64,000 nt of DNA from contig JAAILG010000301.1 in the NCBI GenBank assembly GCA_012026655.1, positions 1 to 64,000 on the forward strand, in the 5' to 3' direction. This stretch comes from Hydrolagus affinis. Lineage: Eukaryota. Each line of letters begins with the position of its first letter. Position 1 is the stretch's first letter. The notes beneath the pieces are model-generated. The model saw nothing but the letters and a program-made list of their open reading frames with translations, had not been told where the DNA came from and ran no database searches. The position numbers and the translations under genes were made by a program. Positions 31,424-61,162 of this stretch are shown here, piece by piece.

Positions 31424-31607
31424 GGACATTACACACGTGCTCAAGCGAACAGCCCACGACCAGTAATGAATTCGCAAACTGGATCGGTCAAGCAAAATCA
31501 GCAGCAGCTACGGAACATTCGTTTAAACAAAAGGAAAGGATCAGATACCAGTGTGCCAGAGGAAGAGAAGATGAAAGAGGAAAAATGTGATTGTCCTGTA
31601 AGAGGAG
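31424..31607 (+). CDS. JMJD1C: JMJD1C exon 7
   Basis: atccag|GGA...GGAG|gtaaaa; 184 nt; GHYTRAQANSPRPVMNSQ...KRKGSD. Confidence 0.93.
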
Positions 31608-31708
31608 GTAAAAATCCCGTAATAAATGCTTTATTTGCCCATTTATTTCTAAGTTGGGTATTTGGGACTGTATCTTTCAACTGGGAATAAAATGTCTTTT
31701 TTTAACAG

Positions 31709-33210: not shown

Positions 33211-34416
33211 GTATGTGTTTTTGTTGTACGTTGTGTAATATAAATAAATACTCGGGTTTGTCAATAGCTCAAATTAGTATTTGAATTGCTTAAAGCAATA
33301 AAATGTGTTTATATAATCGTTGCATTTGATGTAGCATCTTATCATTCTGTGTCAATGTCTCAAAGCGCTTTACAGGATATACTGTAAACTGGTTTAACTG
33401 TATTTTATGGGTGAAACGTGACAGCCAGTTTTGCACTTAGCAATGTTCTAAAAACAGCCATTGAGTGAGCAATCAATTTAATTTGGGGGATTGTTGGCCA
33501 GGACACCGGCAAAAACCTTTCTTTTAGTGCCATTCTATCTATAACATCCAGTTTATCGTCTCATCGATGGATGGCACCACTACCAATACAACACATGTCT
33601 TAATGTGGGGCTTAAATCCACAACCTTTTGACTCGAATGCTGAGCCAGAATGACACACAATATTGCACCATACACAATAGGAGGATTGTCAAAGTGCTTT
33701 ACACACGAGGTGGAGTTAGTGTGGTGTGGGCAGTGTGGTTGGGTGGGGGGTGACCAAAAGAGGTAAGAAGTAGAATCCAATCCCAATGACTATTGAACAT
33801 AATTCATTTTTAAAGCTTCTGGGTCAAATATGTATTTTATGATATTGTGTTTCAAGGTGCATAATTCGCATTTATCTTTTACTGCCCATCATGGGCAGAG
33901 GTGTAAGATTTTTAAAGTCAATTTTATGATATCTAGCTATACATTTCATAGCTGTTTTGTTAATTTTAATTTGAACATGTTTTAAAAATTGAGGCTGGAT
34001 CACTTTTAACTGAGAAATTTACCATAACAATTGGAATGCATAATTATCTTACTAAAAGAGAATTGATAAACTCGAACATTGACGTTTTTCTTTCCTAATA
34101 GCATTGGTAGAAATTAAAGGTCTCTAGGAGATGTCATTTTTTAAAAAAAACAAATAAAGGTTTCATTAACTTGCCATCTTAAAATAGATGGTGCTGAACA
34201 TTTATCAAAGTAAAATGTATTACCGAAGATCTGATCTGTATGAGACTACAAATTGAGAGATTAAATTATATGACTTTTAAGGGAATTACATATTTGATGG
34301 CATTTTAAAAAAAATGTTTTTACCAGCCATACTGTTACCACATTGTGTGAAAAATAAATTATGCACACTCAAACAATGTAACATTAATTGGTATGATTAT
34401 TTGTGTTTTGTAACAG

Positions 34417-34589
34417 AATACTTCCAGTCCTTGGCTACCTCAGCCCACCATTGTAACCTCAGTTGACAGCCTTGGCTTATTGAGCCACATTCCTGTACGT
34501 CCTGCCAGTGCTGATTCTCATCGACCCCTGAAATTGACCCAACATTCTAGTCCACCTTTGTTGAAGTCAGCTGTAGATCATCAAAAAGA
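34417..34589 (+). CDS. JMJD1C: JMJD1C exon 9
   Basis: taacag|AAT...AAAGA|gtaagc; 173 nt; NTSSPWLPQPTIVTSVDSLGLLSHIPVRPASAD. Confidence 0.93.
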
Positions 34590-34807
34590 GTAAGCATCCC
34601 ATTCTGTCTCTTATGTGGTAACTTTTTAGGAGAAACACTATAAAGTTAAATAGGTAAGAACAGAACCTCCAAGGAAATCAGACCTCAATGGATTATTGAG
34701 GACGGTTGTTCTTCAATGGTATTGCAACAGTAAGGTACAAAAAGAATATGTTCTTTACTGTACATAATGAAAAGATGAGTTGTGATGAAGCAGTATAAAA
34801 ACAAATA

Positions 34808-35326
34808 CAATAAAAGTCCTTTTATCCGTGACCCGATCAACTGTAACTTCCGTATAACCGGCACCTCAAAAAAAAAAGGTCCCCATTCGAATAACCGGAT
34901 CTTATCTGGCGCAATCACAGTGGTGGCATTTTTTTCCCCTCGTATCAGTATTTTGGAATGTTGCTACTAGTGCCTGAAGGTGGCGCTGCCAGTTTTTCCC
35001 CTCTCATTGGTATTTTGGCTTGCAGCTAGTGGAGCCTTAAAGTCGCGCTGCCGTTTTTTTCCCTCACATCGGCCATTGTAGAAGATAGACTGTACAGCTC
35101 TACCCCAGCATCATAGCTTCAAATCAGGCATCTACCAGCAAAGGTGATTTTTAGGTGAATAACAAAGGTTTGTTATTATCTGTCATTATTTAGTCTATTA
35201 TTAATATGGTATATTAAAATAAGTTAATTTTTTTTGTGTTGGGGTTTCGGCGTCAGATCCACCCGAATATCCGGCATGTCGTTTTTGGCCAGGTCCCGAG
35301 GGTGCCGGATAAACAAGCTTATACTG
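34808..35326 (-). mobile_element. pogo/Tigger-type MITE, same family
   Basis: TA-flanked, shared TIR and subterminal sequence. Confidence 0.85.
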
Positions 35327-35919
35327 TATTTCTGAATAGAAAAAAGATACTTTTGGAAAAAAAAGATGCATTGTTATTGTGCATGTTTTTCATATTTGTG
35401 TTCAGTTAAAATGAGGATTTACAGAAACAACTTAACAGCAGATTTTTAAAAAATATTGATTAGTTAATATTTTCTATGATTATTTATAGCACTTATAGAA
35501 TAGTAGATAAATACTCTAATGGAATAGAGATCAGGCAGAAGAATGGGAAAAGGTGGATAATCTTTGAGAGAGTCAGTCAAGACAAGATGGGCCAATTGGC
35601 TGCCTCCTGTGTAATAAATGCCAGTGGTTCTACTTAAAATGTTTGTCAAGTATTGCATTTTGATTTGATACTAAAATATACATAATATGTGAGCCATTAC
35701 CCTGAATGTTCTTGATTTCCCCAATTTTATTCCCCATCTATACTAAGTTTTCCTCTACTTTAGAATAAAAAAATAATTTTAACCTCAAATTGAACTGTTT
35801 CAAATCTTGTTGTCAACTCAATGAAATATTTAATGGAAATTGAATTAATTATCAAGATATAATACATGGTTAAAACATTTACAAGTTTAACTTGGCCTTT
35901 TGTTTCCCTCTTTGTATAG

Positions 35920-38099
35920 GAAAATTGACAAGAAGCCTTTCGTTGAACCATTGTGTTCTGTTGCACCTGCTCAAACAAAGCCTGATTTTGATCACGGCAG
36001 ACCATTGCATGGATTGGAAAGCCAGTTGCCTCGATGCTTTACAAACACTATCTTTAGTCAGGGTAAGCAGAAAAGAACACCGCAAGAACAAAACAAATGT
36101 TACAATAAATACAAAGAAGAGAGCCATAGGATTCTACAGGAGAGCATTGAAGTCGCTCCCTTTGCAACCACTATCAAGAAAAATGATTCAGTGAAAGATA
36201 CTTGTTCCAGAATACCTTGTTTACCTACTCCGAGCCCCAAACCACAAAATATAAAACGAGAACGAGAAACCCAGCATTGTGCAACAGAACTTTATACATT
36301 GAAGAATTCATTACCTCAGACTCTACCCCAGAGTAACTATTTTACTACCTTATCAAACAGTATTGTAAATGAACCACCTCGATTGTATCCATACAAGGAG
36401 ACAGTAAATCCTTATTCTGAGAAGACTAATCCTTCAACACCTTCTCATCTTTCATATAACAATAAGACTCTTTCAAAACCTCCCCCCCTTATTAAACACC
36501 AACCGGAGGGTGAAAGGTTAAGAAGCAAAATTACAGAACAGCTTTCCCAGCAATTGTCCTCTCAAACTGGAAACATAAGTAATATGGAATACAAGAGAAC
36601 CAGAGAACAGTTATCAGGTTCATCTACAACCCCCAACAGAATTATGCCCTCTTTACACAAAGCACCGATATATCTGCCTTCATCTCAACACATTGCAGAG
36701 CGAAAAGAAGGGAACTACCGGAATCTGTCCCCACCAACTCTAACTCCAATACAACCTGTACATGCTGCTGTTAAGCTTTCAGAACTCCAAAAACCTCCAA
36801 CTTTACTACCAGAACCAAGAGCAGATGTCAAAAATTACATGAATAATCTTGCATTAGCTTCTGTTGACATCTGGAAAAATGATTCAGTGAATTGTGGTAA
36901 GCGAGAATGCCATTCTGAGAACAGCAGCAAAGTTTTCCAAGTAGCCCAAGCATCTGTTATTGTGCGGCCACCTTCTGCTATTAAGCAGGATAATCTACCA
37001 GAAATGCAGTCGAACTCAAGAGAATCTGGAAGAGAGAGATCATTAATTTGGCCAAATCCAGTAAATTACCTCAAACCATCGGAAGTAAAAGAAGTAGGAA
37101 GAATAATTTTGCCCAATTTGAATTTGGACACTACTTACACACAATATGAAAAGACCTTCAAAGGTTTTCAACCACGCAACAGTTTAAATTCTTTGGCTGC
37201 TATTAGTTCCTTTTGCAATAGCAGAACTGACTCGTTCACTTCTGCAACTCAAGCAATGAACAACGCAAGTGGTAATAATGGAGCAGCGGTTGCCAATTCT
37301 TCATCTTCTTCAACACTGACTAACAGTGCACCAGAGCATGCTGCTCCAAGAACTTCAGCTTGTTTGGGAATACAAACCCAGGAATGCAAAGTTAATGTTA
37401 CATCCTCTGGTACTATTAGTACCAGAACAGGAAGCACCGCACAGCATAACGCAAGCCTCTCAAGTACAACTGATTATTACCAGCTGAAGAAGCACAAGGC
37501 AGCACTGGCAATGGCTCATTCTGGAACCACTAACGCTAATAACAATGAGCATGCAAGCCTTAAAACTGAAGAAAGTTCAACATCTCTCTCTCCTAATAGC
37601 AATGGAACAGTCAATGTCTTGCACAAATTAAATTCTATCACTAATGGCCAAACAATTCAATCAAGCCAACCTAGTTATCACACAAAGCTTAAGAAAGCCT
37701 GGCTAACCAGACATTCAGAAGAAGACAAAAACACAAAGAAAACAGAAACTTCTGAAAAAGACACGAGCAAAGTACTTTCAGTTTGTTCATTAGCCTCTAC
37801 TTCAGATGATAAAGAAAAAGTAGATCAATCTCAGGAAGAAAAAACTGAACAGGAAGAAAGAAAGATGAGAAGAGGAACAAAACGAATTTACGAATCTGGA
37901 TCTGAAAGTGATGCTTCAGATGAGAGTGAAAGTAAATCAGATCACAGAGTCAAACGTCAACCTAAACCAACCTACAAAAAGAGACAAAATGATTTGCAAA
38001 AGAGGAAGGGTGATATTGAGAAGGATGAAGAAGAAATTAAACCTAATGGTACTTTATGTAAGATTACAAAGGAAAAAAATAAAAATAAACTTCAGAGTG
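35920..38099 (+). CDS. JMJD1C: JMJD1C exon 10 (largest)
   Basis: gtatag|G...AGTG|gtaagt; 2180 nt; motifs PQSNYFTTLSNSIVNEPPR, LKKHKAALA, HTKLKKAWLTRHSEEDKN, KRQPKPTYK. Confidence 0.96.
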
Positions 38100-39801
38100 G
38101 TAAGTGATATATTTCAATTGTCTAACTTATCCATATGATCTGTGTGCTAGTTTTACATTTACTGTTACAAGGGCACAAAGCGAAAGAATTGAGGGAGAGT
38201 GTTCCAAAGTTCCATGGCTGAAAGCACGGCAGCCAATGTTGCAGAGGATGACGGACAAGCAAGATTACCAGTGCTAGCTGAGTGGAGGCGGTGGGTGGTT
38301 GAATGGGGACTAAGCAGATCAGAGAGGTAGGGAGGTACTGGGACACAAAGGCGTTTGTCAACTCGTGAGGATTTCGAAAGATTTGTTTCTAGATGGTTAC
38401 TGTTTCTTTTAGTGTTGCTTAGATATTTAAAATGAAAAGATAACTTTGCCCACTAATAAATTGTCCAGGAAAGATTGTGGACTTATTGTTACAAACCTGT
38501 ATTTAGCTTGAAGATTTGCCATGCAGCTGTGAGTGCCCCTCCCATTTTGTACACTTCCGCAGGAGTTATTGGCTGCTTTATTATCTGGTGGAAGGAGAAG
38601 TTATCTTTGCCCCACCTCCACATGCCATGTGTTTTGCTTTTTGGCTTGCGGAAAGTTTTGAAAACCTGTTTACAGGTCTCTGCCAGTACTGCCCTATAAA
38701 CAGCTGTTATGATTCTGTGAAGTCTTTCAGTGGAGCTCAACAAGAGTTGAGAATTTTTAGGAGGCTGTCAGCTACCAGAAAAGTAATACTCGTGTTTCAG
38801 ACAGACAGTCATATAAGTTGATCTCAGCTTTCCCTTTTTCCCGTTTCCCTTGTATGCATTGTAATGTGCTTTCCTCTCATGTTGAAAATCTGTTGTTCCT
38901 AGCAAACAAAAATCCGAAGATGTCAAGAAATAAGCTCACACTTATCAGTGTACAATATCTCTTAGTTGGCATTCTTGCTTAGCATAAGGAAACGTTTAGT
39001 CATGGTAGTAATTGACACCACTGCAACAAATGCTATTCCTTCCTCTGATTCCTGAGACCCTAAACTTAAAAGGGAAGATTTCCAGTGGTTTTAGATGTAC
39101 TTTATTGTCTTTTTCAAATTCACCGTCTTCCTGTGTTGTTTGTTATGAGTGAGATGTTGGTATCTAGTTTCAGGAAACATTCAGCTGAATTTCTAAGGCC
39201 TGAAACTTTACTTGACCCTAAAGACCTTTTTTGTTTAAATTTAAGATCATACAGAATCATATTTTAAAAATTAAATTCTGCCTTAATATTGAAGCCAATT
39301 TGTTTTAGCACTTGAGAAATAACAGCTACACCATGAATATCCATTAACTCCTACATGTGAAACACTCTAGAAATGTAATTTTGTTGTTGTTGCTGTACAC
39401 CCTCGCCTAGAAATCTTGGATTCTGTTGCTTAGGGCTTGAGGCAATAATTTGAATAAACTGCCATTTTTATCATTTTCTCAGTTTAAACCACAGATAGGA
39501 TATTTCTGTTATCACATAGATTTGGACACTATTTAAGAAAAAAACTAGATTACTCTTATAAAACATGTTAATTTTGGTCAAAATATCTTAGTTTTACATA
39601 TTAAATATCTTAATTTTTCAGTTACATGCCTTTAATGTTCAATTAAAAGGTAGTAACATGTCTAAGATTTTTGGAAGTTAGTTTGATTCAAGGAATGAAA
39701 ACAAATGAACCTAAAATACATTATTCACTTTAGTAGAAATTATAATTTGAGGAAATATTTGCTTAAGATGCAGTCTACATACAACCTATGTTATTTTGCA
39801 G

Positions 39802-40003
39802 ATGATTTACCGCGATCAGTATTGAAGGACTGGCGGAAAGTGAAGAAGCTGAAGCAGACTGGAGAATCTTTTCTGCAAGATGGTTCATGCTCTCAAATAG
39901 CACCAAACCTGCAGAAGTGTAGGGAATGTCGAATGGTTCGCTATCGGAAGAATGAGGAAATAAGTCTGTCAGCTGTGTTTTGCAGATTTTATTATTTCCG
40001 CCG
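39802..40003 (+). CDS. JMJD1C: JMJD1C exon 11 (Cys-rich region)
   Basis: ttgcag|AT...CG|gtaagc; 202 nt; [24 protein letters not shown]...KCRECR...FCRFYYFRR. Confidence 0.96.
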
Positions 40004-40880
40004 GTAAGCACATATGAATTATAGATTGTTTAGAATGTGTTCTGCTTTTTTTTAAACACTGATTAATATGCGCAAACATTTAGTAGAGTTTGTGAATGTA
40101 CAATGTACTGTTGGTAACCTTTTTTTAGTTGGTATTTAATTTCCAGATGCAGTAGAAAGCCTGACTTTTCACAAGAATACAAATAAAGGAAACAAACTAC
40201 TTATTTAGAACGAAAATATTGATAATATGGTGGAGCTCTATGGTTGGACTCCATAAAATCTCACTCAGTGGTATAATGGGGCTCAATTACCAATCAGGGC
40301 TTTTGCATCGACTGCACCTGTAAAAAAAAAAGACAACTGGCTTCATAGTTATTTTGAAAGAAGCTGATGCACAGGAAGGCAAACTGACTGACTAATATAA
40401 TATGTCAGGAGGGAATCCAAGTACCGGACTTCTAGCAGTAAGATCAGCTAATTAGTTTTTTTTTATAATGATTTTCAGATGTAATCTTGATTTATGGGCC
40501 TACGAATATTGACATAAATGTTGTAAAATGTAATAAAGATCTGTAATATTTCCTGTTTGATTATGTAGGTTCAGGATCCAATATGATATTGAATTTATAT
40601 GGTTACTTTTATACACACTTCAGTTTTACATATTAAAATGTTCTGCTCATATTTTCAGTGAAATATCCAAAATATATTGTTGAAAAAAAGTAATTGAATT
40701 AGATAAAATAATTATCCCCATCAAGTATGAACTGCCAGTTCTAGGAAAATAAATACTAAATATGTTGATGTTATGAAGGAACATCTGTGATAATTGATTG
40801 CAAAACAACCTTGTTCTTACAATCCTATCACCTTGACACAATGGCAAATCAAATTAAAATTGCCTTTACTATTTTCACAG

Positions 40881-41095
40881 ACTGGCATTCAGTAAGAGTG
40901 CAGTATTAAGGACAGATGGATTCTCCACTCCAGAACAGTATGATGAAGAAGCAATAAACTTGTGGCTATCTAATGATTCTACAGATGTGGAATTGGACAT
41001 AGAAACCTCCAAGTACATTCTGAGCAATATTGGGGATAAATTCTGCCAAATTGAGATATCTGAGAAGGCTGCTATATCGTGGCTTGAACCAGATG
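40881..41095 (+). CDS. JMJD1C: JMJD1C exon 12
   Basis: tcacag|A...GATG|gtaaga; 215 nt; LAFSKSAVLRTDGFSTPEQYDEEAINLW...IGDKFCQ. Confidence 0.95.
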
Positions 41096-41309
41096 GTAAG
41101 AAAAGACCTTTGGTGGCACTGATTTATTCATATATAGTAAATTATGTATGTGCATCATAGCAAGTTAAAATGTAAATAGTAAATTCTTGATTAAAGTATG
41201 ATTGTTAAATATGCATATTATAATTTTGCATACCACAACCTGAAATTAATTCAGTATTTTTGAAAGCAGATTTGTTTGAAAGGAAATTTAGTATATTAAG
41301 TTAGTATAA

Positions 41310-42270
41310 TAAAAGCAGTAGAGAGGAAGGATCTGAAATCCGATAACCAGGAGGTAGAGTCAATATGGGCGGAAATAAAAAACAATAAGTGGCAGAAAAT
41401 ATTAATAGGAGTGCTTTACAGACCCCCAAATAGTGATCACAATATAGCACAAGATATTAATCAAGAAATCAGAGGAGCATGTAGGAAAGGTAAAGCAATA
41501 ATAGTGGGTGATTTCAATCTTCACATGTATTGTGAAAACCAAATTGGCAAAAGTAGGTTAGAGGAAGAGTTCATTGAGTGTATGAGAGACAGCTTTCTGG
41601 AGCAGCACGCTGAAGAACCAACTAGGGGACAGGTCATCCTAGATCTTGTTTTGTGTAACGAAACAGAACTAGTCGGCAATGTAGATATTAAAGCTCCTCT
41701 AGGGCAAAGTGATCACAACGTGATTGAATTTTGTATTAAATTAGAGAGGGATATAGTTAAATCTGAGGCAAGTATTTTGAATTTAAATAAGGCTAATTTT
41801 GTAGGTATGAGGAAAGATCTGGGTAAAATAGACTGGAGAATCAAATTAGGAGGTAGAACGGTAGACTAACAGTTGCAAATATTTAAGGATGTAGTACAGA
41901 ATTCACAGAGATTGCATATTCCCCTATGGATTAAGAGTACCGCTGGGAAAGCAATTCATCCGTGGCTAACTAGAGCAGTTAGGGAAAGTATAAAATTAAA
42001 AGAAAAAGCCTATAAAACTGCCAAGAAAAGCATCAGATCTGAGGATTGGGAGAGTTTTAAGAACCAACAAAAAATAACTAAAAATCTCATTAAGAGTGAA
42101 AAAATTGAGTATGAGGGCAAGTTACCTAGGAACATTAAGTCAGATTGCAAAAGTTTTTATAAATATATCAAGAGGAATAACTAGTGAGAGTAAATGTAGG
42201 TCCACTTCAGGCAAAGACGGGAGAGGTTCTAATGGGGATAGTGATATGACGGAGTCCCTAAATATTCTCT
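41310..42270 (+). mobile_element. CR1-clade LINE ORF2 fragment (APE endonuclease plus linker), disrupted
   Basis: YRPPNS, IVGDFN, EPTRGQVILDLVL, LGQSDHN motifs; stops at 41869 and 42184. Confidence 0.92.
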
Positions 42271-42296
42271 TAGTTGCCACAAGTGGTCACATAGTA

Positions 42297-42691
42297 CAGT
42301 AAAACCTTTGTTATCCGGCACCCTCAGGACCTGACTGGTGCCGATTAATCAAATATGCCGGATATTCGAGCGACAAGTTGCTGAAAATCTTCCACAAAAA
42401 AATTTACTTATTTTAAAAACATACCATATTAATAATAGACTAAATAATAACAGAATATTGTATGGATACTTACCAATAAAGCATTCCAGCACACTCAGTA
42501 AAATGATCGGTAAAAAAGCAATCCAGCGTTCGGTAAGCTTAATAAGTGCACATGCGTAAAGTGAGCATACCGCAAGTGTGCCGGATGGCTACGGTATCAG
42601 ATCTGGTTGCTGGAATGGTGAATTATATTGGGAGATACCGATTGGTTGAGCATGCCGGTTGGTTGGGTACTGGATGAACAAGTTTTTACTG
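42297..42691. mobile_element. Related pogo/Tigger-type MITE
   Basis: TA|CAGTAAAACCTTTGTTATCCGG...GTTTTTACTG|TA. Confidence 0.85.
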
Positions 42692-42711
42692 TATTCTCAA
42701 ACGAGTGGGTA

Positions 42712-43444
42712 CGGTAGAAGCCCATTTATCCGTGACTCGATGAACCAGCGCTTCCATATAACCGGCACACCAAAAAAAAAAAAGTCCCCAGTTGATAAAC
42801 CGGAACTTATCCAGAAAAATAGTGGTGGAGCTTTGTAAATGTATAAATAATAACATAATAACAGAATATCGTATTGGTACTTATTGTTAAAACTACTCTT
42901 GCGCTTCTCACCTTTGCTGGTAGATGCTGTGCTTGAAGCCATGATGCTGCGGTTGAGGTTTATAGTCCAGCGATTCTTTTTAAAATGGAGCACGCCAAGT
43001 GGGTGAAAAAAATGTAGCTCGACTTTAAAGCCATATTAGCGGCAAGCCGATAACTCTAGCCGATAACTCACATTGTCGCGCAGGTGCAGTATTTCGATTT
43101 GCCGCTAGTAGAGTCTAGGGTTATTGGCTTGCCACTAGTAAAGTCGCACAACATTAAAATCGCGCTGCCATTTTTTTCACCCGCTTGGCGTCCTCCATTT
43201 AAAAAAGAATCACTGGACTGTAAACCTCAATTAGTAAATGCGAGAAGCGAAGAAGAGGCAGTTTTAACAACAAATACCAATACAATATTCTGTTATTATC
43301 TGTTATTATTTAGTATGGTGTGTGTTAAAATAACTTTAATTTTTTTGTGGTGGGTTTTCGGCCGTGGGCCGCCCGAATATCCGGCAGGCGCTTTAACTGG
43401 CATTGGCCAGGTCCTGAGAGTGCCTGATAAACAGGCTTTTACTG
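42712..43444 (-). mobile_element. pogo/Tigger-type MITE, inverted copy of the 20360 element
   Basis: TA|CGGTAGAAGCCCATTTATCCG...GGCTTTTACTG|TA. Confidence 0.9.
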
Positions 43445-43600
43445 TATTTTTAACCAAAAATATATATTTCACCACTGTATATAAATCAGGATTTTTGGTA
43501 TAAAACAGTGACCTTTACAGAACATGGTCAGAACTGATGAACTTTTCCCTATAAAATGAAAGTTTCAGTGTGTGGTAATAGTATTTGTTTTGCATTTCAG

Positions 43601-43753
43601 CCAAAATAGCCTGGAAGAGAGCTGTAAAAGGAGTTCAGGAAATGTGTGATGCATGTGAAGCCACATTGTTTAACATCCATTGGGTCTGCCAGAAATGTGG
43701 ATTTGTGGTCTGCCTGGACTGCTATAAGGCAAGGGAAAGCAAGGGTTCCAAAG
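43601..43753 (+). CDS. JMJD1C: JMJD1C exon 13 (C6-type zinc finger)
   Basis: tttcag|CC...AAAG|gtcagt; 153 nt; [40 protein letters not shown]. Confidence 0.96.
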
Positions 43754-44716
43754 GTCAGTTTCTGAATTGATTTATGGTTTTAAAAATGCAAGAAATGCAT
43801 GATGGCAGTTTTAGTTACTTTCTTCCATACTGAGAAATCATTCCATGGGAATGTGTTATGTTTTGAGTTCACAAAAGGCCGTAACATTGGTGTGATTTTA
43901 TGAAAATTATAAAAAGATGTGTAAAACACTTCAGTGGAACTTATTACCTGTTCATGGATGTGGCAGAAATGTAATGTTTTAACTTGAGCTTTGGGCTTTA
44001 CATTGGAACTTGCCAGATCCATAAAGTGAAGCATTTTATAGACGAGTTTAGTTCCTTGCCCTCTCAGAATTTTAATCCTGTTATTTTTGGATATGTCCAT
44101 TTATATCCTAGCAATGAAATGTTAAGTCAAACAGAAATTAGCTGGTATAATTTGGTGAATATATTATGCTTTAAACATTCGTGAATATTTTGAAAACTTG
44201 CATCTTTTTGCATCCATCATCTAGTCCCCAGCAGCAATGTCCCTCTGCTGCTATTAAAAAATCAGCTGGAGGAGGGAAGAAATTAGAAGACTTTTTTTTA
44301 AAAAAGACCCATATTGCAAACAGATTCAATTTTTCAGGATTCCTCTCAACTCTGGCTTCATATTTTGTGAATGCTACCCACATTTCAAGTATCAAAGAAC
44401 GGAGTGAAAAAGTTTCTTCTTGAAGAAGTTATTAGGAGTACGATTGCTGAGGCAGCAGAGTCTGATTTGACTTTGGCTGCCAAGTTTCTTGTGCACATAG
44501 GAACTGGTGGAAGATGAGTCAATGTAATTAAATGAAAAGCATGAGTAATTTTCACCTGTGCCAAGATTCACATTTTCACTGGTTGCTGAAGCTGCCAACC
44601 TAAGTGAAGTTATAGGAAATTTAAATTTGTGGGGAATTTTCCAGGCAGATAAATTAATGTGTTATAATTTTAAAAAGCTTATAACTTTCCATTTTTTAAA
44701 AATCTGTATTTTTCAG

Positions 44717-44809
44717 AAGTTAAAGACCTTTATGTTTGGCTAAAATGTGTCAAAGGCCAAGTTCATGATGCAAAGAGCCTAATGCCCACACAGATTATTC
44801 CTGGTAGTG
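44717..44809 (+). CDS. JMJD1C: JMJD1C exon 14
   Basis: tttcag|AA...AGTG|gtaagt; 93 nt (cagaag NAGNAG allows a 90-nt form from 44720); LYVWLKCVKGQVHDAKSLMPTQIIPGS. Confidence 0.93.
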
Positions 44810-45132
44810 GTAAGTGTGTAATTTTTATTTAATTTGGACTTGCATTCTATAATGAGTAGAAACGTAACAAAATGTTTTTATACAGTGTGGAATAGTGTTA
44901 CTTGTAAAAAAAAATGTTTTGTTGTTTCTCATTGAACCTTTATTTAATTTATACATTTCTTATCTCTAACATACCATCCAAATAAACACCATATGTTTTT
45001 ATTCTGCATTGATGGTTTCTGAACAACATAGAAAACAATTTTGAAAATTACGAGAAAATATATCACTTTGTGTGTTATGGTCTGCCTCACCAATATTTAT
45101 TTACATTACACATGATGGTATTCTTGGTACTA

Positions 45133-45738
45133 CAGTAAAACTCGCATGAATCGTAACTTTAACTTAAACCGTATAATCTCCAAAGTCATACACTTGAGTC
45201 CCACTCAGTTTCCTATCAAAACCACCTAGATTTCTTTGCATTAGTCATGTTAATCATCTCCTAGCTCGTAACACCACTCCTTTATCCTCCATTACTCTCA
45301 CAATTACTGAATTGTATTGAATTGCGAGAAATACAGTCTTGATCTGTCTTGCTGCATTTTGTTCATTGAACTTCATTTCCTGCGATTCAATGATTCTCAT
45401 ACTTGTCAGTCAGTGCTGGATATCTGGAGACAGATGAATACAACAAAATTACATTTGCATAGATCCTTTTACATTGGGAGGACGTCCCAAAGTGCTGGAA
45501 TACTCATTGAATCACAGAAATCTTACTCTTGACCCTTTACCGCATGTGCAATTACCGGCTGCGTTGAAGAAAGCACCACATTTGCACTCACCAGTTTCAT
45601 TGAATTATGCACATGCGGTGTAAATTATTAATTAAATCAGAGTTTTCACAGCTTATACAGTTTGCCTGCAACTCAAACTTTACCGATGTGATGCTAAATG
45701 TTGTGGTCCTGACTGATGCGACTTATGAGTTTTATTAG
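45133..45738. mobile_element. Old degenerate Tigger-like element
   Basis: TA|CAGTAAAACTCGCAT at left, degenerate atgagttttattag|TA at right. Confidence 0.45.
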
Positions 45739-45880
45739 TAATTTGTAATAGTTTGTATAAAGTTTCTGAACAAGTTAGTACAAGTTATTTTCAATGTGTT
45801 GATTTCATTTTGTTTTACTCTGATGTCCAGGTCTTTTCTGTTCTGTAAAGCATGTTTTTTCCACAAATTGTCTATTTTAG

Positions 45881-45999
45881 TCTTTGCCGACCTTAGTGAT
45901 ATGATGAATGCCTTCAGAAACAAGTGGGAAATCATTGCACATACCAATGAACAAAATATCCAACTTGTCAAACTCTCAACAACTAACGGAATTTCACAG
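45881..45999 (+). CDS. JMJD1C: JMJD1C exon 15
   Basis: ttttag|TC...CAG|gtacag; 119 nt; VFADLSDMMNAFRNKWEIIAHTNEQ...TTNGISQ. Confidence 0.9.
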
Positions 46000-46759
46000 G
46001 TACAGTGGAAATGAGACCTTTAGGAATATTCTTAGAATAGCGTTTTTCAATATTCATATTATTTCATTGCAATGTATCGATTTGTGGATATAAATATTAA
46101 AATCCCTAACTAGATTGATTTACTTGCAACTTAGTGCATATGGGTGAAGCGGAAGAAGAGAAACTCGTGGTAATCTGTGAACTCAGTATTAATTTGAAGG
46201 TTTCAGCAATTATAATTGAGGGGTTAATTGTGTAGATGCAAAGTAGATACTTAGCTCAAGGTGACACATTAGACCAGGAGCAGTTTAATTTTATTGACCA
46301 ACTGGGACAATTAAAACGGAAGGTGAATGCACAGTAGAAGCATTTACGCAAATATTGAGGTTTTCCACAAAAATAAAGATAACTACTTGGCAAATGCTGG
46401 CATGTGGTATTCTGCTAGAAATGTTTACTGGATCCATTGAAGTGGTTCCTATGATTGTTTTCCTTCAGATAGATTTGATATTGTAAAACAGTTGCATTGA
46501 ACAATTAAAATATAGATCTGCAAACAAAGACTAGACAAGTTAAGATTCAGTTTGGCTGTCTTTGGAGTCTGTGATCAATAAACTAATGTTGGGGAAACAA
46601 AATTAAGTATCTCTTAATTATCTCAGTATCTCAGGTACGTGTCCTCCAAGCCAGTTTAACCCTAGGGAGGATTACTGAGGAAACCTGTTGTCGCTTACCT
46701 TTTTGTAAAAAAAACAATTACTTCAGTCAGTGAGTTTCAAATTTTTATTTTTACAACAG

Positions 46760-46880
46760 GTTCTACAGAGCGTTCTAAATCACAACATGAACATCACAGC
46801 AACAAAACAAAACAGTACTTCTGAGAAGCTAGAGACGAATGGCACTTCCACCAACCCTGCGAATGAAGTCACTTCCGAAA
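46760..46880 (+). CDS. JMJD1C: JMJD1C exon 16 (apparently 3'-shortened)
   Basis: caacag|GTT...GAAA|gtaagt; 121 nt, phase 0/1 fits exon 17; VLQSVLNHN...; read-through hits TAG at 46901. Confidence 0.85.
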
Positions 46881-46954
46881 GTAAGTTTGTAACTGATTCT
46901 TAGCCCTCTCTCAGCACAGTCAGGGAAGAAACAAGAATCTGCCTGTAGATTTTG

Positions 46955-47070
46955 GTAGAATATTTCGCCCACATAAATCTATAGTCAATTCACCTTACAG
47001 TATTTTCTATGAAGTGCTTTGAGACATCTCCAAAGACATAAGGTACAATATCAAATGTAAGGATTATTAT
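46955..47070 (+). mobile_element. SINE 3' fragment just downstream of exon 16
   Basis: atagtcaattcaccttacagtat...atcaaatgtaaggattattat. Confidence 0.8.
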
Positions 47071-47495
47071 GTATTTTTGTAGTTATGCATTCATAAGCGC
47101 TTCTTTCTTTATGTGAATCAAGATTTTGCTAAAGGTGATCATTTCTGGATCAATGCACCTAATGCTATTGTTGAGATCTGCAGTTCGACAGTGATTTGTA
47201 GACTACCATGCCTGTTTTTGCCTAATCTGTGCTGCTTGCCTCACTCTGCCCTCCCATGTTGAAAGATATACATTCCTGATTGAAAGTCATGGGTAAACAA
47301 TACTAAGGAGACTAATTCAGATGCTGGGCAGATGGCAGTGAGGAAGTTGATATGTGGACATTGATGGCATTCCCTACAGACTCTTTTGCATGATTTTTAA
47401 ATGTTTTCTTAACCAAAATAAGATTACGAAAAGAAACAATAAAGAACTGGAGGGCACACAATACAGCATTTCTGTTTCTTTTGATTTGGCTACAG

Positions 47496-47710
47496 AAACC
47501 AAAGAATTATCTCTCCCGAAGACAGTGAAGATTGAATTAAATCAAGCAGACAACGCCGATTCACTGAATTGCAAAGCTTCAACTGTTTGTCTCAGCAGTG
47601 AGCGCGGTTCAACCTTGCGAGATTTACTGACCACAACAGCTGGCAAATTGCGATTAGGTTCAACCAATGCTGGCATTGCATTTGCCCCAGTGTTCTCTGC
47701 AGGGACACCT
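47496..47710 (+). CDS. JMJD1C: JMJD1C exon 17 (LxxLL motif LRDLL)
   Basis: ctacag|AA...CCT|gtaagt; 215 nt; GSTLRDLLTTTAGKLRLGSTNAGIAFAPV. Confidence 0.95.
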
Positions 47711-47797
47711 GTAAGTACTGAATAGATTTTAAGTGATCATTTACTGGTGAAGTTGATTTATTTAAAATGACTTGCTCTGTCAAAAGTGACTTGCTCG

Positions 47798-47865
47798 ATC
47801 AAAGAGCCGGCACAGACTCGATGGGCCGGATGGCCTCCTTCTGTGCCATAACATTCTATGATTCA
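47798..47865 (+). mobile_element. CR1-type LINE 3' tail
   Basis: gatgggccggatggcctccttctgtgccataacattctatgattc. Confidence 0.7.
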
Positions 47866-48256
47866 ATGAAAATAAAAATAATTACCCGCAAAATTGATCA
47901 ACTATCAGTTCCCTCTGTTGCAAATGTGAAAGCGTATTAAACTTTTTCATGTTTTTGATGCTTTGGACACTGGCCTTGACCCTGGGCTTGACATTGGTAT
48001 CAAGATGGGAGTGTGACAAACCAACAACTGCCAACTCCATGTTACACAACATCAGTCAAGTCGCTGTCGCTTGCCTCAGCCAGCAATTGGACATGGGGTG
48101 TATGGTGACCAGAGATGATGTGATCTGTGTGTGTGCCATCTGTTACAGACTGTTTGTGTGGTGCTGATTTGCAGTGTATGACTGACTACACACTGTCAAC
48201 GATTTGACATTTTCTTATACATTTTGCCAGAATGTTTTGTGTTTAACAGAGTCATA

Positions 48257-48548
48257 CGTGGAGTCCTGTAACTCAGAAGTTTAGAACACTCGCCTCACAA
48301 GTGAAAGACCTGGGTTCCATTCCCAGCAGAGCAAGTCTTCTTACTTCACATCCCTGATAATAATCCTGCACAAGAAAAACACTAATAAATTTGTCACTTC
48401 AATCCATGCCTGTTCATGGGAAACTGCTATGCGCAATTGGCTGTTGCATTTTGCCCACAAATATACAGTCATTTCACTTTACAGTATGTTCCGTGAGACG
48501 TCTAGAAGACATGAAAAGCGGTATATCAAATGCAAGGATTATTACTAT
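48257..48548 (+). mobile_element. Full-length tRNA-derived SINE
   Basis: gtggagtcctgtaactcag... plus family tail. Confidence 0.9.
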
Positions 48549-48815
48549 TTTGAGTACCTGAATTTGAAGTTTTCTGAAGATATTCCAGTTTATCAGATTC
48601 TAGGACTCATTTGAGTTTGATAGATTGGTACCATCTGCATTAGTTGAAATAATCTCAATAGCCATTGCTGTTTTTACCAGATTTAAAGATATTTAAGAAT
48701 ACGTATCAGATTTTCTGTTTAACTCAAAAGCATTAGTAAATTTGTTTGTCTTAATTGCTTTATCTATTATCTTGATGTGCATTTGGTAATGTTACCTGTG
48801 TTTATTTCTTTTTAG

Positions 48816-49097
48816 ACTGGCAGAGGTGCAAGGAATGTGCCAAACATCTTAGATGATATCATTGCATCAGTAGTAGAAAATAAGATCCCACCAAGTAAAA
48901 CTCTAAAGCTAAGTGGAAAAGAAGAAACAAAAGAAAATGAGCAAGGAGGCATTAAAAATCTCAATTTGGATGAGGTTAGCAAAACTCATGCTGCAATTCC
49001 ACATTCTTGGCTGTGTGACGGGCGCCTGTTATGGCTACAAGATCCAAGAAACCACAGAAACTGGAGGATATTCAGAGAATGCTGGAGACGAGAACAG
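48816..49097 (+). CDS. JMJD1C: JMJD1C exon 18
   Basis: ttttag|ACT...CAG|gtcagc; 282 nt; PNILDDIIASVVENKIPP...PHSWLCDGRLLWL...NWRIFRECW. Confidence 0.95.
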
Positions 49098-49202
49098 GTC
49101 AGCAAAATATCAGAAAGTTATTGTGAATGGATGACTAATGTTCCTTTTCCCTTCTGCCCTCTCCTATACGTTATTTAAATTAAATGTTGTGATCTGTTTC
49201 AG

Positions 49203-49374
49203 CCTGTTTTGGTGTCGAGTGTGCACAAGAATCTAAATTCCAACATATGGAAACCTGAAAGTTTTAGGCAAGAATTTGGAGAACAGAAGGGTGACCTCGT
49301 TAACTGCAAAGATGGTACTTTAATTTCCAATATCAAAATCCAAGACTTCTGGGATGGTTTTGAAGATTCAGCAA
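49203..49374 (+). CDS. JMJD1C: JMJD1C exon 19
   Basis: tttcag|CCT...GCAA|gtatgt; 172 nt; PVLVSSVHK...FWDGFED. Confidence 0.95.
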
Positions 49375-49621
49375 GTATGTACTTTTCATATGACTGGGCT
49401 AAAGTTTGCTCTGGTTATTGGCAATATGTAAGCTGAAATGATCATAGCCAACATACTGCTGATTTAGAATCCTGGTTTTGCTTGGCACAACTATTTCATG
49501 ATTAATAAATCATGTGGGCAAAAAATATATAAATGAGATATTTAAACATCTTTGCAAGGCTAGTATAATTTAACCTCTCTAAGTTTGTACATTTATTTAA
49601 TTTTCCATTCAATCTTTATAG

Positions 49622-49712
49622 AACGATTAAAGAGCAAGACCGGGGAGGTTATGTTACTGAAGCTGAAGGATTGGCTTTCTGGTGAAGAGTTAAGAACCAT
49701 GATGCCTTCAAG
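49622..49712 (+). CDS. JMJD1C: JMJD1C exon 20
   Basis: ttatag|AA...AG|gtaaaa; 91 nt; KRLKSKTGEVMLLKLKDWLSGEELRTMMPSR. Confidence 0.94.
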
Positions 49713-50196
49713 GTAAAAGATAACTAACAGTTTAAAATGTATGTGTGTTGTGTTTTCTTTAATTGGCCATATTGGCTGAACGTACTTAAAGTGCTGTTTG
49801 AATTCTACCCCAGACCATTCTCCAAAAGACAGAGTGACAAATATATTCCTAGACTTCTGTCCATAACACTGTATCAGGAAATGCCCACTCCATCTCTCCT
49901 CCTCTTATCTAGAACGATATCTAGTATTTTGAATCCACTTATCCTATCTACTTCAGTTGCCTTTCTTGGACATTCTTTTACCAGTCATATGGTTGTGATT
50001 AAATTCCCTATTTATTTCTGTTCTAATTCGTTCTCCAGATTTTTTTTAACCACAAATAATACCAAGTTTATCTTAATTTTTCCATCATAATTTTGGATAC
50101 ATTAAGTCACCTTAAGTGTGTTTTCCAGTGAATAACTCTGTATTAATGAAGGACTATAAATCTGATGTTTACACCTCAACCATTATTTTCTTTTAG

Positions 50197-50327
50197 GTAT
50201 GAAGATTTAATGAGAAATTTACCACTGCCAGAGTATTGTAATCCAGAAGGAAATCTGAATTTAGCTTCCCGTTTACCAAATTTCTTTGTGCGGCCAGATT
50301 TAGGGCCCAGGTTGAACTGTGCATTAG
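50197..50327 (+). CDS. JMJD1C: JMJD1C exon 21 (JmjC domain)
   Basis: ttttag|G...TTAG|gtatgt; 131 nt; [44 protein letters not shown]. Confidence 0.96.
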
Positions 50328-50414
50328 GTATGTATAAAACGCATTGTTCTATCACTAATAGCATTTGTTTTTATATGGATGGAAAATATTAATTTGTAAA
50401 TAATTAAATCACAG

Positions 50415-50531
50415 GACAGACCACAGCTAAAGACTATGGAACTACCAACCTCCACCTAGATATTGCTGATGTTGTCAATATTCTTGTCCATGTTAGTGTA
50501 CCGAAAGGAAGTGGCAATGGTCATAAAACAG
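50415..50531 (+). CDS. JMJD1C: JMJD1C exon 22 (JmjC HxD motif)
   Basis: tcacag|GA...ACAG|gtaaaa; 117 nt; GTTNLHLDIADVVNILVHV. Confidence 0.93.
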
Positions 50532-51081
50532 GTAAAAAATTTAAAGTTTCAGTTATTCTTTTATGTAGATGCTATAATCAATGCAAGGATTATTATTACT
50601 ATTATTATTATCTAAATCAGATGAATTTCTTTTAGAATTTATTCCTATAAAGTTTATAGCTGTCTCACCAATCTATAAATTAGACGAAGTTATGAAAATT
50701 ACAGAAACAAAGTATTGCAGAACTGGTGTCTACATAACAGTAAAACATTGCTTTAGCATTGAAATAGAAGTTTCTGTATATTAAAGGCCATCATAAAAGA
50801 ACAAGATTGTGGGAACACGTTAAGAATTTATGAAAAGTAACTGACAATGTTTACAGAATTTACCTTGTGTTTACCTTGGAGCTAACGCACACATAGCACA
50901 GAAATTTAATATTAGTAGATTAAAAACAATCCCTGAATTTTGAAACCAAAAAATGTAGCTGAATATATATTTACCATAAGTTTATTACCATACTTTCTAG
51001 GGCCACCAGCAGGTAGAATTTGGTATTTATAGAATCAAATTGGGGTGCTGGAGTGTAACTGAACAAAAGAGCAACATAGTA

Positions 51082-51290
51082 CAGTAAAAGCCCATTTATC
51101 TGTACCCGTTCAACTGTAACTTCCGTATAACCGGCACCTCAAAAAAGGTCTGCATTCGATTAACTGGAATTTATCTGGCACAATGTATATTTAAAAACAT
51201 TTTTCTTGATGTTTTCAGCCGAATATCCAGCAGGCGCTTGAACCAGCATTGGCCAGTTCCCTAGGGTGCCAGATAAACGGGCTTTTACTA
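51082..51290 (-). mobile_element. Short deletion-derivative MITE, same family
   Basis: TA|CAGTAAAAGCCCATTTATC...GATAAACGGGCTTTTACTA|TA. Confidence 0.88.
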
Positions 51291-51526
51291 TATTCTGATA
51301 AACTCAATAAAATTAAACATCTTCAAGAACATCAGAGAATTTTATATCAACTTTTGACATTTGCATTTATAGTATTAGTTGTTGGATATAAGTTTCTGAA
51401 TATTAGTTCCAAGATCGTCATTAATTATGGTAAACTAAAATTATATAACTAACAGACTGTAATAAACTTTTAAATGGTCTAGATTTTGGAATGCAGCATT
51501 CACAATGGTGGACTTGTATTTTTCAG

Positions 51527-51666
51527 CCATTTGGAAGAGAATTGAGGAAGAAGAAATGGATGAAAATACAAAGAAAAGGTTGAAGGACTGTGGTGAAATT
51601 CCTGGTGCTTTATGGCATATTTACTCAGCCAAAGATGCAAAGAAAATAAGGGAGCTTCTACAAAAG
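51527..51666 (+). CDS. JMJD1C: JMJD1C exon 23
   Basis: tttcag|CC...AAG|gtgagg; 140 nt; [10 protein letters not shown]...KIRELLQK. Confidence 0.95.
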
Positions 51667-52478
51667 GTGAGGCGTAACATTGATAGCAATTAATTGTTAG
51701 GCAAAGATGCCTTTACAACAACAACTAAATTACATTTATAGAGCGCCTTTCACGTCGGGAGGGCATCCCAAGGCGCAATTACCTACAACAGGGGGCGGGG
51801 GTTAAAAATAATTTAAACCCATTAAACACTTGCAGTTATCTACATCAATCGAGCATTTTAAACTAGGACACACAGATAGTTGTGTCTCGAGTTATATGGG
51901 TAGAAAAGTGTACCTCTTTGACCACATTTGTGGTTAACTCCCCCCTTTCTAACCCTGTTTCTGTGCAGTTCTTTGAAACTATCCTAACACTATCAACAAA
52001 TTATTGTTGTTGTACTAATTAAATTTGAATTGGTTGTAATTGAAGTAAAGGAACAGAAAATATTGAGACTTCTTAAGGATAGATGCCAGGAAGTATTTAT
52101 TTTCTCAGAAGTTAATAAATGGTTGGAATTAGCTTCCAGAAACAGGTGGCTGAGGCCAGAACACTGTCTTCTTTAAGAAGATGGTGGAGCTTGTATTCTG
52201 GAGAGATGAGAACAAGGGGCTGAAGAGACTTGCAAAACTCTTTTGTTGTGCTGTCTGATGAAATACTTTATCTTTACTAACAGAATACTATTTATGTTAG
52301 TCTAATCTATGCCTTAATTTCAAGCAATCAAGTAATCATTTCTTATGGAATGTGCTGCAACCTGAAATTATGTTTTTCCACTGGAAAGATTTATAATTGA
52401 GACACTGGTTTATGGCTAAGGTAGGTATCAATGCATGAATAATGAAAATTGTTCCTTTTTTTTGTGCCTCTCACAAAG

Positions 52479-52643
52479 GAACGGGGTCAAGAATCAGTTG
52501 AACATGATCCAATCCGTGATCAGAGCTGCTACATGAACAAGAAATTGCGTCGGAAGCTTTACGAAGAATATAGAATACAGAGTTGGACCATCTTTCAATT
52601 CTTGGGTGATGCAATCTTCATACCAGCAGGGGCACTGCGTCAG
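52479..52643 (+). CDS. JMJD1C: JMJD1C exon 24 (distal metal-ligand position is Arg)
   Basis: cacaaag|GAA...CGTCAG|gtaaac; 165 nt, phase 0/0; [11 protein letters not shown]...[16 protein letters not shown]; start set at the first AG after the poly-T tract. Confidence 0.9.
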
Positions 52644-53423
52644 GTAAACTGTGATGTTTTGGAGCTGACTATTTTAGTTTCATTTGTCCTGTTTTTTCAT
52701 CCTTTGGGAGTGCATTGATGTGCACCATCTTCCAGCATAAGTTTTGCACAAAGATCACAAGAGAATTGGAATGAAGGAGATCATTTGATCTAATATACCA
52801 TCTTCCCATTACAAAATTAAACTGTATATTAAATAAATAGCATCATGGTATCAACCACATTTTTTGGTAATCTGATCCAACCATTAATTACTTTACATTT
52901 TACCTTTTTGGGGGGAAATACTCATTTCCCTGTGAATTTAAATGTAATGTGCTATTTGTTTTAGTCAGTCATCCTCATCAATCCAAATTCATTTCCATAA
53001 AATTTATTTGATTCCTAATTCTTGTTTTTGGGATGTGCAGATTGGTTCCCAAGTTCCCAATGCAGCAGTGTCATGAAAGGCGCTATACAAAGTAATTTTG
53101 CTGCTGTTGTTTTATATAAAATTAAGTATTATTTCCAGACCACTATCCTTTTTTAAAATTTGAGTGATTTATTAATTCCTTGTATCAATCCTTCTGCCTC
53201 AGTTTCTCCATCTATCTTTAAAACCTACATGAAGACCTAAAATTTCAAAGCTTTAATAGCTTGATATAATTTTAACATGACACATCTGAAGTACTGATTG
53301 ATGCCATGCGTGTTTTGAATATCAGATTTGTTTGTATATCGATTCTCTTCAAAATTGATGATAAACTATGAAATTATTATATATTTAGTGTTCACTGTTC
53401 AAGGATTGCTCTGTGTTTTGCAG

Positions 53424-53558
53424 GTGCAGAATATTTACAATTGCATTCAAGTCTCTGAGGAATTTGTGTCACCGGAACATGTAGTACACTCTTTCCATCT
53501 AACCCAGGAACTGAGACATCAATCAAACCAAGAGATCAATTATGAGGATAAACTGCAG
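53424..53558 (+). CDS. JMJD1C: JMJD1C exon 25
   Basis: ttgcag|GTG...CAG|gtatgg; 135 nt; [19 protein letters not shown]...INYEDKLQ. Confidence 0.96.
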
Positions 53559-53769
53559 GTATGGATTTGAACCTGGCCAGCTTCCACTACGTGGAATAAA
53601 ATTTCTGCTTCTTGAAAATGCAGTGAGTGCCTCCCGCAATGAGTCTGCAAGCCAATAGCTCTACTTGGTACAAGTTATAAATACTTATGAATAAAATATG
53701 GATTTTTTAAAATAAAGTTTGCTGCTTACAATTTTTAGAGAGGACACCTTCCAAGGAAATATTTGTACA

Positions 53770-53930
53770 AAAGCAAAGAAATAGGATAGGCCATTCATCC
53801 TCTGGAGCGTGTTCTGCCATTTCTGTAAGATCACGCTGATCTGTACCACAAAACCAATTACTGTACCTGCTCTGCCCCATATCCCTTGATACGCTGATCT
53901 AACAAATATCTATCTATCTCAGTCTTGAGC
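53770..53930 (-). mobile_element. CR1-type LINE 3' fragment
   Basis: taggccattcatcctctggagcgtgttctgccatt...ccccatatcccttgat. Confidence 0.65.
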
Positions 53931-54611
53931 TTAGCGCTCAGCCACTAGTGTCTCATTCTTGTTACTTTGTGGATTTGCCATTACACATTGGAAGTCATTT
54001 TTTTATATTCTCAGCACTTCTAATATCCTGCCACAATCCAAAGAATGTTCCCTGACTTGAACCACTAGAACACTGTTTGTAATAGAGTTCTTAATGTTCA
54101 ACATAGAAAATAGTAACATGAATATTGTTATTTTAAAGCATGATTACAGTAAAAAATAAGTGAGTTTAATGAGACAGAAGTGGACAGAAAATGTTGGTTT
54201 TGGTGCATATGTTTTTATCACCAGTTGCTCACAGTGCAACATCACCACCTTTTGGTGATACATTACTACTGTGAAGTGTTCCTCATCGCAGCATTTTAAA
54301 TGTTAAATTAGTAAGTGTTGACAATTTAAGAGAACATAATTACTAGATTGTAATTTTTAAATTATTTTTGAGGAGGTGGGTAGGTTACCTGTTCACAAGT
54401 CTCTGCAGAAACTAGTCAGTGGGAAGCAAATCATTTTCTTTTACAACTTTATTTAATCATATCTTGTGTTTCAGCAAAGAAGTTTCTGTGAACTAAAATT
54501 TGTACATTTGTTATTCTATATGAAATGTATAATTGTATTATATGCAAAATATGATTTTTTTAAAAATGTTGTGGACTAATTAATTCTGTTAATATTCTCA
54601 TTTCTTTGCAG

Positions 54612-54701
54612 GTAAAAAATATAATTTATCATTCAGTTAAAGATGCTGTGGTAACTCTGAAGATGCATGAAGAAAAGATGTCAAATACACAAAACTCTTA
54701 A
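54612..54701 (+). CDS. JMJD1C: JMJD1C exon 26 coding part with stop
   Basis: ttgcag|GTA...TCT TAA; VKNIIYHSVKDAVVTLKMHEEKMSNTQNS*. Confidence 0.95.
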   Translation, partial: VKNIIYHSVKDAVVTLKMHEEKMSNTQNS

Positions 54702-59778: not shown

Positions 59779-60516
59779 CTATAGTTTGTCCCTTTTTGAG
59801 GTTTCCGTTTGGTTGTCCAATAGTTCTTTCAGGTTAGATGCAACCTCAGGAAGTTCCAGAGGGGGGAGATCAGCCAATGAAATATCCTGAGCTGGCATTT
59901 CCAAAGGAGGAAGATTAGGTATCGGAATGTCCTTTGCTTTCCCAGCATTGGTAGTTTTATCTGGTGTCTGACTCAGACACCATAATTCAGACTTCACAAA
60001 GTCTGCAGCTACATCCACTTCCTTCTCTGATGGGAATTTCCTAAGTCTTGCATTCTCTGCCTTCAGCTGCCTATTCTCCTTCTTTAGTCTCTCATTCTCA
60101 GCTACGAGTAGATCAACAAGTCTTTTTAGCTCTGCAATTTTCATTTCTTGTTCCTCTATCCTTGTCTTGTCATCCTTCAGAGTTTTACTCCCTCTACAAG
60201 TCTTTAAAGGCATTTCCTTTTTCTCTAGCAGAAAGAGAAGTGTATCTGGTTCTCGATCACATGAGTTTCGAATTTGCCTCAGATATTCATCCCGATCAGA
60301 GCTACTCATTTCCACATTTGTGGAAAGTGTTTTTTGACTATCAGGTTCATCAAAGGAGGGTTTAACAGATAACTGGGATTCAACTTCCTTTTCTACAGTT
60401 GTCATGTGTATCTGAGCCCTTAGCTTTTCTTCCCTCTTGGCCCGCTTCCATCTCTCCTCAATTAGGAGCTGATGTTTGATATGGCTATCCCGTTGTAGCT
60501 TCAATGATAATAATGC
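59779..60516 (-). CDS. NRBF2: NRBF2 last coding exon (end of MIT domain, LxxLL, coiled coil)
   Basis: ctgcag|GCA...TAG on - strand; [72 protein letters not shown]; tail-to-tail with JMJD1C. Confidence 0.95.
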
Positions 60517-61162
60517 CTGCAGATTAAAGTACAATATTTTATTAGCATCAACCTGAAATTACTTAAACATTAATTGATTAGATCAATATAAATCATGTTA
60601 ATGTGCAACAATTATTAAGACAGTAAACAATGCAATGCTAATATGTCCTGGTGGCTGTTTGCTCAATTGCAATCCACAGATCCTGATTAAACCCCCCACC
60701 CAAAGATTGAATTTTGGCAACTGATAACTATAATTTCTAGGTATATGACTGGGTGGATTCCCTGTCACAATTCAGTTGAGCGACCTGTTGGGAGATGCAG
60801 AGCTTCAGCAGCAATTTTTTAACTCTCTCTATACTAGTAATGAATACCAAGTATTGCATATAGGAATGTGTTCACAAAGCTAAATGAAAGCTTGGGATAA
60901 CAGCTTTCCAGAAGCTGTTATCCCAAGCCTCAGAGTTTCTTCATCAGCTATTCAACGTACACTTGCATTTGCCCTTTATACTGTGCAGAGGATTTTTACA
61001 CAGACAATTGGTTTCATAAGCAGTATTGGAATTGGATCCCTAGTCAACTACCTTGATTCTAGCTATACTATTTAAATATTGTTTACTAAATATCAACTGC
61101 TTAAACTAGGTCCTCATTTGAGGCTTTGGCAAATAGACATGGCAGCTATGAAGCCAACTTTG

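Follow-up and report, generated by a model that had tools for sequence, protein, structure and literature searches.

Arginine in place of the distal Fe(II)-ligand histidine of JMJD1C in a chimaera and other cartilaginous fishes

The JMJD1C locus and its JmjC exons

The window, i.e. the whole stretch of 64,000 nucleotides of Hydrolagus affinis DNA that was analysed, contains 25 coding exons of the JMJD1C gene and, downstream and tail-to-tail with them, an exon of NRBF2. The main features are the following:

922..54701, + strand: JMJD1C gene, 25 coding exons, with the ATG-bearing first exon off the contig and orthology assigned by the tree (100/100)
17692..29464, + strand: exons of the highly conserved JMJD1C N-terminal region (111/117 scored sites invariant in 13 chondrichthyans)
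39802..44809, + strand: exons of the C2HC4 zinc-finger region
59779..60558, - strand: NRBF2 exon, the downstream neighbour

The contig begins at base 1 of the window, which is why it lacks the ATG exon. The spliced model has AG/GT at all 24 of its 24 junctions and comprises 7134 nt and 2377 amino acids, ended by a single terminal stop; the unbroken frame over 25 exons announced in a preliminary description of this DNA is thus borne out, while the exons numbered 24 and 22 there are actually the 23rd and 21st in the window. The model is identical to Callorhinchus milii P0001 at 2199 of 2377 residues, and the gene is colinear with full-length JMJD1C from the N-terminal region through the long middle exons and the zinc finger to the JmjC domain. 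In a maximum-likelihood tree of 44 JmjC domains, it groups with the named JMJD1C proteins in a 25-row clade (100/100), apart from KDM3A and KDM3B. NRBF2 is also the neighbour of human JMJD1C. Two kinds of repeats were noted in the introns: a fragment of a LINE-type retroelement endonuclease (41300-41869, + strand, Pfam PF14529), and high-copy interspersed repeats at 51080-51300 and 51715-51776, on either side of the exon 51527-51666.

The positions of the JmjC domain that matter for cofactor binding are these:

50453..50461, + strand: H-x-D motif with both proximal Fe(II) ligands retained (H2176 and D2178 in the window model)
52479..52643, + strand: JmjC exon with the distal ligand position (AG/GT, phase 0)
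52638..52640, + strand: Arg codon CGT at the site of the distal Fe(II)-binding His (residue 2302 in the window model, equivalent to human H2466 by offset from H2336)
53448..53450, + strand: Gln codon CAA, ten positions beyond the distal ligand, at the site of a Lys in KDM3A and KDM3B

The exon 52479-52643 ends with ATA CCA GCA GGG GCA CTG CGT CAG, followed by the GT donor, and in a gap-free alignment the Arg encoded by CGT falls on the distal-His position of human JMJD1C (5FZO, 2YPD, 9GDK) and KDM3B (4C8D). Both the Arg codon and the retained HxD of the preliminary description are confirmed: compared with a canonical Fe(II)/2OG JmjC oxygenase, the chimaera JMJD1C possesses the proximal HxD but lacks the distal His. 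As a separate observation, chondrichthyan JMJD1C keeps the ancestral Asp of this motif (window 50459-50461), while all bony-vertebrate JMJD1C proteins have Glu (HxE).

Authenticity and distribution of the replacement

Eight sequencing runs were considered, and the codon is covered by contigs of runs X6 and X13 and by RNA reads of run X18; X9 stops short of the exon, and X17 gave no aligned sequence. The X6 contig (organism B) spans 52215-52816 with three substitutions, none of them in the CGT codon, and the X13 contig, from the more distant organism D, also runs across the exon and has 17 listed differences, all of them outside 52638-52640. The RNA reads of X18 and X19 come from a relative. 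Those of X18 cover the exon at a mean depth of 11.4 (bin 52580-52693) and leave the codon unchanged among the rows listed, and those of X19 splice into the JmjC exon and end before the codon. Furthermore, four multi-exon Logan contigs of the skate cluster (P0528, P0533, P0527 and P0531), probably of transcript origin in view of their size of 1.5-8 kb, encode Arg, so that spliced Arg-type JMJD1C transcripts would exist in a relative.

A His-bearing second copy of JMJD1C, proposed for search in the preliminary description, was not found in the animal's own genome, where the three matches are JMJD1C itself and two KDM3A/B-type genes, in both of which HLD, the distal His and the downstream Lys are intact. 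As this assembly is fragmented into 245,464 contigs, the absence is good but incomplete evidence. It is extremely improbable that the Arg reflects an assembly error, a rare allele or a dead duplicate lying beside a His-bearing copy. Such an explanation could draw on the fragmentation of the assembly and on the runs closest by word share, which showed no contig over the exon; none is listed there for runs X1 and X2. It is opposed by the identical codon in contigs of two other organisms, by the NRBF2 neighbour of the window gene, by the single JMJD1C among the own-genome matches and by the occurrence of Arg in 19 named genera. Assembly error and rare allele, the reservations attached to the preliminary description, were rejected on account of the contigs of the two other organisms and of the presence of Arg across chondrichthyans.

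The distribution of the replacement was surveyed in 289 database proteins plus the window model (18 chondrichthyan and 272 bony-vertebrate entries), drawn from the best 120 of 501, 1270 and 1151 matches. The set consists of redundant isoform clusters, with most weight on birds, mammals and teleosts, and salamanders, Xenopus, lungfish, lampreys, hagfish and squamates were left out. Among the matches listed, 18 of 18 chondrichthyan entries have Arg at the distal site. The bony-vertebrate entries divide into 264 with His, 4 with Tyr, 1 with Gln and 3 that lack the domain. The four Tyr-type entries are the four amphibian ones. Look-ups of the clusters extended this pattern, with Arg in 58 of 70 further chondrichthyan members (12 without the exon) and Tyr in 20 of 22 further amphibian members (2 without the exon). 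By name, the Arg-type protein is found in 19 genera of chimaeras, sharks and batoids, and the Tyr-type protein in 9 genera of caecilians and frogs (P0035, P0056, P0121, P0157, P0438-P0459). Two species of Triplophysa have Gln, and 148 further representatives gave His in 141, Phe in 5 (teleost-type JMJD1C), Tyr in 1 (a KDM3-type fragment) and no site in 1. The proximal His and the Asp/Glu are present in 287 of 287 scored entries among the matches listed; the lost ligand is always the distal His, and HxD/E is kept in every case.

The loss of the canonical facial triad, which the preliminary description had noted for a single orthologue, is therefore real, but far older and wider. Since Arg is fixed across chimaeras, sharks and rays, these alignments show that it arose on their common stem. 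Given the tree and the His of KDM3A, KDM3B and invertebrate-type KDM3, the different replacements (Arg, Tyr, Gln, Phe) imply that the distal His was apparently lost at least four times independently within JMJD1C. The teleost losses to Gln or Phe (P0239, P0463-P0466; P0324, P0332, P0335, P0340, P0341, P0462) may affect one of two duplicates. In amniotes and ray-finned fishes, where His is nearly invariant, the metal site probably still matters. Outside JMJD1C, a KDM3A/B-type fragment, P0374, has Tyr at the distal His position.

Constraint, fold and the rest of the pocket

Evolutionary rates were compared as protein branch lengths, obtained with FastTree for 34 orthologues on a tree of fixed topology, with 60 column bootstraps. 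With the large middle exon as reference, the tree length of the JmjC domain is 0.53 in chondrichthyans (0.45-0.66) and 0.45 in amphibians (0.36-0.54), against 0.31 in amniotes (0.24-0.36) and 0.23 in ray-finned fishes (0.19-0.28). Relative to the N-terminal and zinc-finger regions, it is 2.20, 2.26, 1.49 and 1.19, respectively, with intervals that overlap those of the amniotes. In the two His-less clades, the rate of the JmjC domain is raised about 1.5-2-fold, and these clades top both rankings, an order that has a chance of 1 in 6 when four clades are compared. The zinc-finger region of chondrichthyans (39802-44809) is also fast, its tree length being 0.69 vs 0.20 for the N-terminal region, compared with 0.12 vs 0.44 in amniotes, and the whole catalytic unit is possibly relaxed.

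The JmjC domain of His-less chondrichthyans is not decaying: its identity is 77.4% between chimaera and Heterodontus vs 76.0% between chimpanzee and coelacanth. AlphaFold modelling of the skate P0528 JmjC domain gave a pLDDT of 80.8 and a target TM of 0.93 to 5FZO, and an intact double-stranded beta-helix JmjC fold is thus predicted for the skate protein, not for the window protein itself. Altogether, the chondrichthyan JMJD1C appears to be an intact, expressed gene under purifying selection, as judged at the protein level, that has lost a catalytic residue. The invariance of the distal-site Arg is unexceptional, since 13 chondrichthyans share 7 of the 25 arginines of the JmjC domain, and 176 of its 365 sites, without any change. 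The idea that this Arg was specially selected as resisting CpG reversion was also considered and is unsupported, 4 of the 10 JmjC arginines with CGN codons being equally invariant.

The distal His is not the only pocket residue that differs. Ten residues after it, Gln is found in 25 of the 25 JMJD1C rows of the tree set, and Lys in 18 of the 18 other KDM3 rows that include this strand; Lys is invariant in KDM3A, KDM3B and invertebrate-type KDM3 at the position where JMJD1C has Gln. Among the matches listed, 279 of 281 scored JMJD1C entries have Gln, the exceptions being one His and one divergent C-terminus. In KDM3B this Lys is probably a ligand of 2OG, and the residue replaced by Gln in JMJD1C would likely bind the C5 carboxylate of 2OG; a search of the literature for confirmation of this role found none. 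In general, the C5 carboxylate is described as being usually held by a basic residue and a hydroxyl (PMC4233403). Three papers, reviews included, state that the cofactor residues of JMJD1C are fully conserved, and another attributes to JMJD1C atypical active-site features and perhaps a need for another co-substrate (PMC13149330). The Thr located three residues before the proximal His is also variable: ray-finned fishes have Ala there, and among the matches listed four shark entries have Ile.

Function of a JMJD1C protein without the distal histidine

The human orthologue, JMJD1C (KDM3C; 5FZO, 2YPD, 9GDK), shares with the window gene its clade, its fold and the Gln at the KDM3 Lys site, and the window JmjC domain is 62.5% identical to that of a chimpanzee JMJD1C entry. 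The human protein has the full HxE...H triad, whereas that of cartilaginous fishes has HxD...R. KDM3A and KDM3B, which are active H3K9me1/2 demethylases, have the JmjC fold, HxD and exon boundaries in common with the window JMJD1C, but retain the distal His and the Lys where the latter has Arg and Gln. Counted by hand, 53 of 55 positions agree between the chimaera KDM3B-type exon and human KDM3B, against 33 of 49 between the chimaera JMJD1C exon and human JMJD1C.

JmjC proteins deficient in ligands are already known, namely JARID2, Epe1, PHF2 and plant KDM3s (PMC13003115, PMC2579438, PMC3623819, PMC13632499). Plant KDM3s, with variant cofactor sites, and JARID2 are, like the JMJD1C described here, expressed JmjC proteins with lost ligands, and are thought to be scaffolds. 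However, they are paralogues that are dead throughout, whereas JMJD1C is one orthologue whose triad is present in some vertebrate classes only. In S. pombe Epe1 and human PHF2 (KDM7C), as in chondrichthyan JMJD1C, the distal His is replaced and the proximal ligands are kept, and the His-to-Tyr change is shared by these two proteins and amphibian JMJD1C. They belong to a KDM2/7-like subfamily other than KDM3, and their Tyr can ligate a metal, which is not expected of the chondrichthyan Arg. Mutation of the proximal His of Epe1 is reported to disrupt Swi6 binding, even in EDTA, in a protein that is not unfolded (PMC7192584). Epe1 is the closest precedent for the JMJD1C pocket as a putative binding module. 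As that mutant loses binding, H-to-A mutants of JMJD1C do not prove catalysis.

The best explanation of these results, which we hold to be probable, is that chondrichthyan JMJD1C acts as a chromatin scaffold without catalysis, in which the JmjC domain is maintained for its fold, as a binding or conformational module. The bulky, cationic Arg at the metal site would block productive binding of Fe(II) and 2OG in a pocket that the JMJD1C-wide Lys-to-Gln change may have weakened beforehand. The retained HxD would shape the pocket for the binding of a partner or of a histone tail, as the equivalent His does in Epe1, and such a role would explain why HxD/E is never lost. Demethylation of H3K9 could fall to KDM3A and KDM3B, in which all ligands are present, and the coactivator function could be exerted via the conserved N-terminal region. 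The human data fit a largely non-catalytic role of JMJD1C: its H3K9 activity is described as absent (PMC3623819, PMC13149330), and a non-catalytic, RUNX1-binding function is assigned to its N-terminal region, the JmjC domain being required in some leukaemia lines only (PMC12120245). Pointing the other way, mouse JMJD1C has been reported to be a His-dependent H3K9me1/2 demethylase (PMC2965226).

It is unlikely that the protein has remained an oxygenase, using either an iron site with two ligands (His, Asp) or a different co-substrate, in which the Arg would swing aside or bind an acidic co-substrate in replacement of the missing Lys. The invariance of HxD/E in the scored entries would fit such residual metal binding too, PHF2, with Tyr at the distal site, is reported to be active in vitro (PMC11790891), and 'unusual co-substrate requirements' have been proposed for JMJD1C (PMC13149330). 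The H725A and H679A variants of AspH, which have one Fe ligand, are likewise reported to be still active (PMC10947486), but these are His-to-Ala cavities, and their Km for 2OG is raised 100-200-fold. Moreover, Arg, Tyr, Gln and Phe at the distal site have no common ligand chemistry, and human JMJD1C, with its full triad, is itself described as inactive in two studies (PMC3623819, PMC13149330).

The pocket could alternatively be vestigial, the Arg having been fixed by drift and having no role of its own, with selection acting on the fold or surface only. The faster evolution of the domain in His-less clades, the number of arginines and other sites that are invariant anyway, and the further pocket change from Thr to Ile in shark entries all speak for it. 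We nevertheless regard it as quite unlikely, for no clade varies in HxD or in its replacement residue, all scored entries among the matches listed keep the proximal ligands, and the replacement Tyr of Epe1 is reported to be itself required (PMC7192584).

The preliminary description had presented this gene as a natural experiment on whether JMJD1C catalysis matters. This is upheld for cartilaginous fishes and amphibians: judged from the residues present, the survey shows that canonical JMJD1C catalysis would be dispensable in two vertebrate classes, but not thereby in mammals. It does not decide the matter for mammals, since among the matches listed 264 of 269 scored bony-vertebrate entries retain the distal His. 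A full-text literature search found no mention of the ligand loss in shark or amphibian JMJD1C, whose substitutions might be visible in alignment figures or supplements. The protein acts in germ cells, and leukaemia depends on it; whether it is an active enzyme has been in dispute since 2010, and a paper of 2026 still calls this activity unclear. The Arg- and Tyr-type proteins are natural variants ready for rescue tests in mammalian cells, and frog models are predicted to run already on Tyr-type JMJD1C.

A broader possibility, to which we give less credence than to its contrary, is that JMJD1C has been a pseudo-demethylase since its early jawed-vertebrate origin, through the loss of the KDM3 Lys, and that its pocket is a binding or conformational switch. 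Such a switch would need HxD/E and not the third ligand, and cartilaginous fishes and amphibians could therefore drop the distal His. If so, the phenotypes of mammalian H-to-A 'catalytic-dead' mutants would result from lost binding and not from lost chemistry, and active-site inhibitors of JMJD1C would target a non-enzyme. In the databases, the His-less JMJD1C proteins are all annotated as probable demethylases, which is a problem of annotation.
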